Below are positions 25,601 to 26,455 of a stretch of DNA of 64,000 nucleotides, piece after piece. Each line of letters opens with the position of its first letter. Within the stretch, counting starts at the first letter, position 1. Below the pieces are notes generated by a model. The model saw nothing but the letters and a program-made list of their open reading frames with translations, was not told the DNA's origin and did no database searches. The DNA comes from Terriglobia bacterium (GTDB lineage Bacteria; Acidobacteriota; Terriglobia; 2-12-FULL-54-10). Made by a program: the position numbers and the translations under genes. Location: assembly GCA_963666975.2 (NCBI GenBank), contig CAXVYR010000003.1:160001-224000 (forward strand), written 5' to 3'.

Positions 25601-25833
25601 AAATCTGCCGGGACAATGCTTATAAAAGAAAGCAAAGCATTGCTGCGCACGCTAGTCGTTCGGCGCAACGCGCCGGGCAAGGTATCGAGATTGATACTGA
25701 GAAATGCGGGGCTCCGGCGCTTTTCGGAAGGCCGGTGCCCGCGTATCACAAGCGTCGCGCATTGATCGCGACTGTGACGGCGACCTGTTCGCAAAATGAA
25801 AACTTTTCGCCGTCGCTCACAAAGATTTTTTTC

Positions 25834-25862
25834 TTGACATTTATTTTCCCAATCCGTATACA
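25834..25862 (+). promoter_or_regulatory. Candidate sigma70 promoter for the Lys-rich microprotein
   Basis: TTGACA-N17-TATACA with a T-rich upstream tract. Confidence 0.6.
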
Positions 25863-25940
25863 TTAAGAATCAACAAGCGGCGAGGTAGACGAAACGTTCG
25901 CCGTGAAAGAAAATTTGATACGAAAGGGAGAATGGAAACG

Positions 25941-26006
25941 ATGAAATGCGCAACTAAGAAAGCTAAGAAGAAACCCGCCGCCAAGGCCAAAAAGAAAAAG
26001 AGATAG
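25941..26006 (+). CDS. 21-aa Lys/Ala-rich microprotein MKCATKKAKKKPAAKAKKKKR
   Basis: AAAGGGAG RBS 10 nt upstream (alternative in-frame ATG at 25932); flanked by a promoter and a terminator; too short for the ORF track. Confidence 0.7.
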   Translation: MKCATKKAKKKPAAKAKKKKR

Positions 26007-26031
26007 TGACGGCGGAGCTTCCGGGATTGAG

Positions 26032-26064
26032 GGGGGACGAAAATTCGTCCCCCTTTTTGTTTTT
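26032..26064 (+). terminator. Intrinsic terminator
   Basis: GGGGGACGA-AAAT-TCGTCCCCC followed by TTTTTGTTTTT. Confidence 0.85.
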
Positions 26065-26095
26065 CTGGAGACTCCGCTGATTTTGCTCGCGAGGG

Positions 26096-26455
26096 TTACT
26101 CGTCCAAATGCAGGGGCGCCAGCAGGGACTCGATATTGGAGGCGCTGACGCGGATGCGGGCCAGTTCTTCCGGCCGGCTGCTTTCATCGAACGCGCTGAA
26201 CAGCCGCATCTTCGCAGCGGCGTATTTTTCCGTGTCCCCGAGCGGACGGTCGTGGCTTTTCTCCCACCGAGCCACGGCTGATTCTTCCACCACCACTTCC
26301 ACCACAAAAGAAGTTTTCCGGTCGCTGGAAACGCTAAACAAAAAACTGCTGCTGCTCCGTCCGAGAAGACGGCGCCGGGTGCGCGACTGTAAAAAGTAAT
26401 ACTGATAAACGACGCCGCTGTCTCCGGAGTAAGTTTTCATGCGGCGGACCGGCAT
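26096..26455 (-). CDS. Hypothetical protein
   Basis: 119 aa, protein-like composition (RRMKTYSGDSGVVYQYY...EKYAAAKMRLFSAFDE); follows the GT2 gene on the same strand. Confidence 0.7.
   Translation of the reverse strand: MPVRRMKTYSGDSGVVYQYYFLQSRTRRRLLGRSSSSFLFSVSSDRKTSFVVEVVVEESAVARWEKSHDRPLGDTEKYAAAKMRLFSAFDESSRPEELARIRVSASNIESLLAPLHLDE

Follow-up and report, generated by a model that had tools for sequence, protein, structure and literature searches.

A stand-alone transcription unit encoding a 21-residue oligolysine peptide

We describe a short transcription unit from a Terriglobia bacterium (Acidobacteriota) that encodes a 21-residue peptide composed almost entirely of lysine and alanine, and comparison with related genomes confirms, at the level of sequence, that this unit is a real gene conserved across many Acidobacteriota. 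Its open reading frame (ORF) is most likely a translated protein-coding gene, as suggested by a conserved Shine-Dalgarno (SD) site and ATG, by variation at third codon positions and by the avoidance of long A runs. The unit lies in a 64,000-nt stretch of genomic DNA, hereafter the window. An earlier reading of these letters without database searches (the sequence-only reading) had picked out a TTGACA-N17-TATACA promoter, a 5' hairpin, the site AAAGGGAG, a 21-aa ORF with 11 K, 1 R and 1 Cys, and a terminator, all of which we find at the positions it gave:

25826..25833, + strand: T/C-rich stretch directly 5' of the -35 hexamer, with a T run at 25826-25832; possibly an UP-like element
25834..25839, + strand: -35 hexamer TTGACA, invariant in the same-family alignment
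25857..25862, + strand: -10 hexamer TATACA, 17 nt spacer from the -35 hexamer
25877..25904, + strand: 5'-proximal mRNA stem-loop with arms GCGGCGA (25877-25883) and TCGCCGT (25898-25904), seen in the fold
25923..25930, + strand: Shine-Dalgarno site AAAGGGAG, read directly
25941..26006, + strand: coding sequence of the 21-aa oligolysine peptide (ORF 25941-26003, stop TAG 26004-26006)
26029..26066, + strand only: intrinsic terminator, a stem at 26029-26056 (12 pairs, 7 of them G-C) followed by a T run

The transcript probably starts near 25869, and the GGGAG of the SD site is followed, after a gap of 10 nt, by the ATG at 25941. A product of 24 aa would result if translation began at an alternative in-frame ATG (25932), yet as this codon lies only 1 nt past the SD site and is absent from the orthologues, we take 25941 as the start. 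The ORF from 25941 to 26003 specifies MKCATKKAKKKPAAKAKKKKR, with 11 K, 1 R, 1 C and a net charge of +12, in which lysine triplets are separated by two to three small residues (A, P, T, G). No second ORF like it exists in the genome: of the 36 Lys-rich ORFs found there (10-70 aa, at least 35% Lys), it alone combines a length of at least 20 aa with an SD site. The stem of the terminator is not preceded by an A run and hence does not form a canonical terminator for the convergent gene on the other side. Between the stop of apt and the promoter of the micro-ORF lies a non-coding gap of 225 nt (25601-25825), within which there is an inverted repeat, CAATGCTT...AAGCATTG, near 25614-25644.

Taken alone, the window makes a weak case, and chance would be a possible explanation. 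Promoter pairs of this type were seen 17 times in the 4.23-Mb genome, where approximately five would be expected according to our base-composition estimate, and the fold of the whole transcript is ordinary (z = -1.35). A consensus promoter scan reports no promoter at this locus because its rule demands T as the last base of the -10 hexamer. It is the conservation of the unit's sequence, described below, that settles that the gene is real. Outside the window, a near-identical pair of promoter-like copies (TTGACT, 16 nt, TATACA) is found at G000:C4:1102757 (+) and C4:1309601 (-), 207 kb apart on opposite strands and with identical upstream 12 nt.

The architecture of the unit recurs in related genomes

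When 61 related genomes were searched at the DNA level, 8 of the 13 from the same family gave a match over the 251-nt unit or the greater part of it, with 68-94% identity; for four other families the match was confined to the segment comprising the SD site and the ORF (query positions 97-182). The ORFs at the matching loci begin with M-K-C/L/Y-A-T/A-K-K or M-A/P-T-K-K and continue with K, A, P, G and T only. The full architecture, consisting of promoter, hairpin, SD site, ATG, K/A/P ORF and terminator, recurs in 24 related genomes from at least five families. These 24 units were extracted by rule, and one is truncated by a contig end, so that the promoter was judged in 23. All 23 have the same layout, namely a T/C-rich stretch, TTGAC(A/T), a spacer of 17 +/- 1 nt and TATA(C/T/A)A, and in each of them a T run and then C/T stand ahead of TTGAC. 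An SD site of the form (A/G)GGAGA lies 8-10 nt upstream of the ATG in 24 of 24 units, and the stop directly after the last basic residue is kept throughout. A simple promoter rule recovered the motif in 32 of 51 rows, the 12 rows from family f4 all being without it. Our terminator rule places a hairpin and T run behind 40 of the 41 micro-ORFs of at most 35 aa in other genomes. The earlier claim of a complete transcription unit absent from the ORF track is thus borne out by the 24 genomes: the unit is independent and is overlooked by gene callers, and nine exact forms of the peptide (21-82 aa) are absent from a collection of 15 billion proteins. The gene escapes callers and homology tools alike because it falls below their length limits and is of low complexity.

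The 5' stem-loop has also been maintained within the family of the window. In 13 same-family sequences, 91.2% of the cells of the 7-pair stem are paired and four of the seven pairs show compensatory changes, as compared with 16.5-53.8% pairing in slid controls. A 5' stem-loop is present near the same place in other families, with a sequence unrelated between families.

In one of 14 same-family genomes (G009; L011 1300-1560, - strand) the promoter, the hairpin, an SD-like site and the terminator are kept, the ATG has become AGG and several Lys codons are altered; BLAST found no second copy of the micro-ORF in this genome. The sequence-only reading had counted loss of the start codon in homologous loci against its own proposal. 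Such loss, seen in this one genome of the 14, means either that the peptide is dispensable there or that the RNA matters.

A hint of transcription comes from metatranscriptome run X3, which contains a 109-nt contig whose nt 1-79 are identical to 25891-25969. This is a single, unstranded contig, and RNA libraries can contain DNA. The whole stretch is present in a DNA run that carries the organism label of X3. Nucleotides 80-109 of the contig match 25891-25920 a second time, forming a junction from 25969 to 25891 that may be an assembly or cDNA artefact. In RNA runs X1 and X2 no contig covers the unit itself, and contigs of this kind cannot prove absence, strand, transcript ends or level; the word shares of X1-X3 are small and do not count here as evidence of habitat.

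Coding signature of the micro-ORF

In a codon alignment of 23 units, from which the 53-aa form described below was left out, pairwise differences at codon positions 1, 2 and 3 numbered 684, 524 and 1717, and Ala, Thr and Pro codons differ solely at the third base. Differences at the third position, where the synonymous AAA/AAG variation proposed as a check by the sequence-only reading would fall, dominate, although this test is blind to strand, since one antisense frame has the same wobble position as the sense frame and fits equally. That antisense frame turns Lys, Ala, Pro and Thr codons into Phe, Ala, Gly and Val. It is the promoter, the SD site, the ATG, the position of the stop codon right behind the final basic residue and the terminator's T run that decide the strand, since they are features of the forward strand.

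Among 44 distinct peptides (785 residues), K accounts for 56.9%, A for 26.6%, T for 5.0% and P for 4.2%. D, E, F, W, I and Q do not occur at all in these peptides, Met is found solely at the start, and the charge ranges from +7 to +19. The absence of acidic codons, with AAG only one transition away from GAG, points to a decoded product. Long A runs are avoided as well: the sum of longest runs was 250, as compared with 300.5 +/- 10.2 when Lys codons were shuffled within each ORF, and none of 1000 shuffles gave a sum that low. Lysine is encoded by AAG 376 times and by AAA 146 times. As the relatives are not independent of each other, the codon and A-run figures overstate significance.

Distribution across the phylum

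The range of the family was gauged in 151 evenly sampled genomes of the class with two strict patterns, each combining the SD site, its spacing, the ATG, a motif at the N-terminus and a Lys triplet further on. The M-K-x-A-T/A-K-K pattern matched in 21 of the 151 genomes, including 7/13 in family f1, 8/19 in f6 and 5/7 in f11. The M-A/P-T/A-K-K pattern matched in 33 (f1 4/13, f4 12/20, f5 10/19, f8 2/4, f9 5/20), counts that include G483, a genome flagged as unpublished. Reversed patterns, used as a control on the same 151 genomes, gave no match for either. Neither pattern was found in f2 (0/6), f3 (0/20) or f7 (0/19); the patterns miss known carriers (G001, G036, G474, G020, G052 and G037) and hence underestimate the range. 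Since units found in this way were chosen by SD site and ATG, the presence of these two elements in them is no independent evidence. In most cases the unit is present in a single copy per genome.

Outside the class, 10 of 362 genomes in a sample of the phylum match the strict patterns. ORFs of 14-34 aa are present in six of the ten, three of which carry two copies; one has a 49-aa form, together with a separate 122-aa false positive; one has a 176-aa H1-like protein, and two have false positives only. A scan of the whole collection for the exact codons of M-K-C-A-T-K-K-A returned 13 matches, of which six are true, in records titled Acidobacteria, Terriglobia or Solibacteraceae, and seven are chance N-termini or short ORFs.

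Among the false positives of the patterns, the one in G302 (L106 1171-1533, - strand) is a 121-aa protein with a Lys/Ser-rich N-terminal half followed by a DUF6496 domain, and the one in G377 (L125) was put in the same group on its sequence alone. These proteins (121-128 aa) share the Lys/Ser-rich half and open with the same M-A-T-K-K motif as the micro-ORFs.

Length variation and repeat expansion

The 53 distinct coding sequences range from 11 to 34 codons, the commonest length being 20, and the form found in the family of the window is mostly 20-21 aa long. In G001, a genome of the same genus, the orthologue (L003 1615-1776, + strand) reaches 53 aa by means of K-A/P repeats and has the same neighbours, promoter, hairpin and terminator as the 21-aa unit; by comparison of the two loci, the 53-aa form is a repeat expansion that occurred in situ. 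In family f4, nine of the 12 matches are 45-82 aa long and carry lysine-triplet pentamers behind the same N-terminus, and the other three are 18-19 aa long. The long and short f4 forms adjoin different genes and are at most putative orthologues. As judged from composition and repeat structure, the 21-aa peptide is the minimal end of an H1-tail-like series of lysine repeats that extends from 11 aa to 45-82 aa. The description of the product as an H1-tail-like microprotein in the sequence-only reading thus holds, with a conserved coding micro-ORF of H1-tail composition and repeat-expanded forms at orthologous or similar loci. Such free variation in length fits binding by charge and not a fixed binding pocket.

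Genomic neighbourhood

The unit stands alone, without an operon partner and without a link to a ribosomal-protein operon. The sequence-only reading had suggested synteny downstream of apt, and this is correct inside the family of the window, the only one where apt and an acylphosphatase gene lie upstream; beyond it the wider neighbour is a convergent 119-aa ORF (26096-26455, - strand). This ORF is the most widely conserved neighbour and is found, as a single copy, in 68 of the 151 class genomes, a count that includes G467 (flagged as unpublished). The micro-ORF faces it in convergent orientation at 21 of the 30 loci examined, made up of 12/14 in f1, 6/6 in f11 and 3/4 in f8, with 0/6 in f6, f9 and f10. 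More generally, as far as crude ORF picks can tell, 36 of 41 loci have their biggest downstream ORF on the opposite strand. In other families the neighbours differ by family (Methyltransf_28, RlpA-like, MoaA, VWA, RmuC, LemA, MerR) and have no common theme.

The 119-aa ORF has no match in Pfam, and its best NCBIfam row (E = 0.069) scores 13 bits against a cut-off of 101; in the Atlas it occurs in Acidobacteriota hypothetical clusters only. Its AlphaFold model is confident (pLDDT 88.8) and predicts a four-strand sheet plus helices. Foldseek found no match to this model at E <= 0.001, and the best VIA-align match, a DUF1488 structure with Z = 5.9, is within the range of noise.

Comparison with known families

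No Rfam 15 family reached its gathering score, the best being 19.6 bits against 60 and 18.9 against 75 (best E = 0.12). The 21-, 24- and 53-aa forms match no family in Pfam or NCBIfam at E up to 10. For HC2 (PF07382, cut-off 40) the best score was 10.4 bits (E = 0.72) and for NF038053 (cut-off 80) it was 14.6 bits (E = 0.03), both on the false-positive 121-aa protein of L106; the true 45-82 aa forms score at best 8.5 bits with HC2 and 12.7 bits with NF038053 (best E = 0.11). A profile built from 17 peptides found nothing in the window's own genome and missed even the query itself; low complexity defeats HMMER, which makes profile searches useless here. A homologous-protein search with the 53-aa orthologue scored 1495 candidates, none of which passed. 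As no family model matches, the likeness to H1 is one of composition only, homology being undemonstrable for sequences of this kind. Searches of open-access full text, together with the sORFdb paper, turned up no account of oligolysine micro-ORFs that stand alone.

Nearest in kind are the bacterial proteins with H1-like lysine repeats. In PMC9239181, the KPAA tail of AlgP is described as having H1-tail composition, and both KPAA tails and peptides made from them bind DNA; chlamydial Hc2, according to PMC2848022, varies in size by lysine-rich pentamers. With Hc2, with the KPAA tails of AlgP and PhaF and with NF038053 (hist_H1_lk_Burk), the peptides share a K/A/P(T) low complexity and short, periodic lysine repeats. 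Like Hc2 they change size by repeat number, which in Hc2 proceeds by pentamers and here goes from 20-21 to 53 aa at one locus. They differ from the H1-like repeat proteins in being 5-15 times shorter (11-34 aa) and in having no structured domain.

Proposed function and alternatives

Starting from a gene whose reality, conservation, coding signature and composition are established, we tentatively favour a translated polycation whose charge lets it bind nucleic acid, with the chromosome as the most likely target; its high expression, its binding target and its physiological role are the inferred parts of this proposal. A near-consensus promoter of the sigma-70 type would give a transcript of ~190 nt, which the 5'-proximal stem-loop may stabilise. 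The strong SD site and the 21-codon ORF, with an intrinsic terminator of its own, would then lead to an unstructured peptide, presumably at a high level. As a genetically encoded polycation, this peptide would bind nucleic acids non-specifically by charge, and its main target would be chromosomal DNA, in the form of nucleoid coating or compaction. Against such a role stand the four HU/IHF genes that the genome already has, and the loss of the ORF from G009 with its RNA signals kept. Polyphosphate is unlikely as the target: searches of the genome, which is 98.9% complete, turned up no PPK1 and no PPK2.

Provided that the peptide is made, the known minimum size for a conserved bacterial gene product other than a leader peptide would drop to 11-21 residues, and a minimal, experimentally tractable model would become available for H1-tail-like lysine repeats acting on nucleic acids. 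The micro-ORF, whose expression signals are among the best conserved in its genome, occurs repeatedly across a major phylum of the soil, and genes of this class, missing from current catalogues, are within reach of composition-aware scans for SD site, ATG and terminator. A broader reading, which we regard as speculative and rather unlikely, would be that Acidobacteriota possess a hidden, phylum-wide family of 11-34 residue oligolysines serving as bulk 'protein polyamines' that neutralise or organise RNA and DNA, possibly as an unseen, integral component of ribosome or nucleoid, with copy number and repeat length adjusted in each lineage. If this were true, the genes would rank with the shortest stand-alone protein genes known to be conserved.

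An alternative that we consider unlikely, albeit the strongest competitor of the charge-binding polycation, is a lineage-specific component or factor of the ribosome in the manner of bS22, bL37, Thx or eL41, seated in an rRNA pocket or at a subunit bridge. According to PMC10618245, tiny and very basic ribosomal proteins often go unannotated and are found only by cryo-EM, examples being bS22 (61% K/R) and bL38 in Borrelia. A niche of this kind could be free in the genome studied here: a six-frame search with COX24_C/bS22 (PF08213) at E up to 1 gave no match in the genome and did match control genomes, and the best genome score for Thx (PF17070), 14.7 bits against a cut-off of 29.7, is located elsewhere, the peptide itself matching no family. 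The strong promoter and SD site and the mostly single copy per genome would likewise suit a ribosomal protein, and the peptides resemble bS22, bL37, Thx and eL41 in being very small and strongly basic, in having a stand-alone gene and in often being missed by annotation. However, those proteins are Arg/Lys mixtures with hydrophobic anchors, whereas the peptides described here are variable in length, rely on lysine and have nearly no arginine, aromatic or hydrophobic residues. Site-specific ribosomal proteins hold their length and sequence, in contrast to a range of 11-34 aa with free in-frame indels and an expansion to 53 aa at the same locus. Free variation in length and repeats, combined with the lack of an anchoring residue, makes us prefer binding by charge over a fixed ribosomal site. 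A ribosomal role is also difficult to reconcile with neighbours that vary by family and include no ribosomal-protein operon, with the loss of the ORF in G009 and with the blank result of the strict patterns in three well-sampled families.

The sequence-only reading had also allowed for a small RNA. In this alternative, which we judge improbable, the RNA itself is functional, or acts together with the peptide as a dual-function sRNA, and its AAG/AAA tract binds Hfq or pyrimidine-rich targets. Hfq binds A-R-N repeats, and the genome encodes Hfq. Within the family the whole transcript is conserved, including the covarying hairpin and the 3' region, and in G009 the RNA signals persist without the ORF. 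Across families, however, solely the SD site and the ORF can be aligned, and there is no Rfam match. The coding signature disfavours an RNA-only gene in several respects: the ATG, the SD spacing and the stop after the last basic residue are always retained in the intact units, variation in Ala, Thr and Pro codons is confined to the third base, acidic codons never appear, and the avoidance of A runs fits fidelity of decoding or of transcription.

We consider it very improbable that the unit serves through translation of the lysine run as such, with the peptide as a by-product. The ORF would then sense the state of lysyl-tRNA or of the ribosome, and read-through of the terminator would produce an antisense RNA to the 119-aa gene. 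Convergence with that gene is kept in three families, and the micro-ORF is similar to an attenuator leader peptide in being very short and rich in one amino acid, with a terminator close behind. Attenuator leaders, on the other hand, precede a gene on the same strand, and here the next gene is convergent, as is the rule at the loci in general, and the unit has its own promoter in every family. In four other families the micro-ORF stands beside unrelated genes. In addition, the terminator is strong, the fold displays a terminator only, with no alternative anti-terminator pairing, and slippery A runs are avoided rather than exploited.

Finally, a minus-strand gene for a hydrophobic, Phe/Leu/Ala-rich peptide resembling a type I toxin (49 aa, window 25841-25990) would share the wobble position and thus explain the third-position signal equally well, but can be dismissed as highly implausible, given that this antisense ORF varies from 5 to 147 aa over 51 units (19 aa or less in several), starts inconsistently and mostly with TTG/GTG, has an SD site in just 4 of the 51 units, and that promoter, SD site and terminator T run belong to the + strand.

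A further comparison is provided by HU proteins of the mycobacterial HupB type, which consist of HU with a lysine/alanine/proline tail. The peptides have the same composition as that tail, and differ from it in being a free product with its own promoter and terminator and without a DNA-binding fold. One of the four HU/IHF genes of the genome has a fused K/A/P tail. The frame of the HU homologue at C4:1204890-1205156 (+), outside the window, extends to approximately 1205200 as a K/A/P-rich C-terminal tail.
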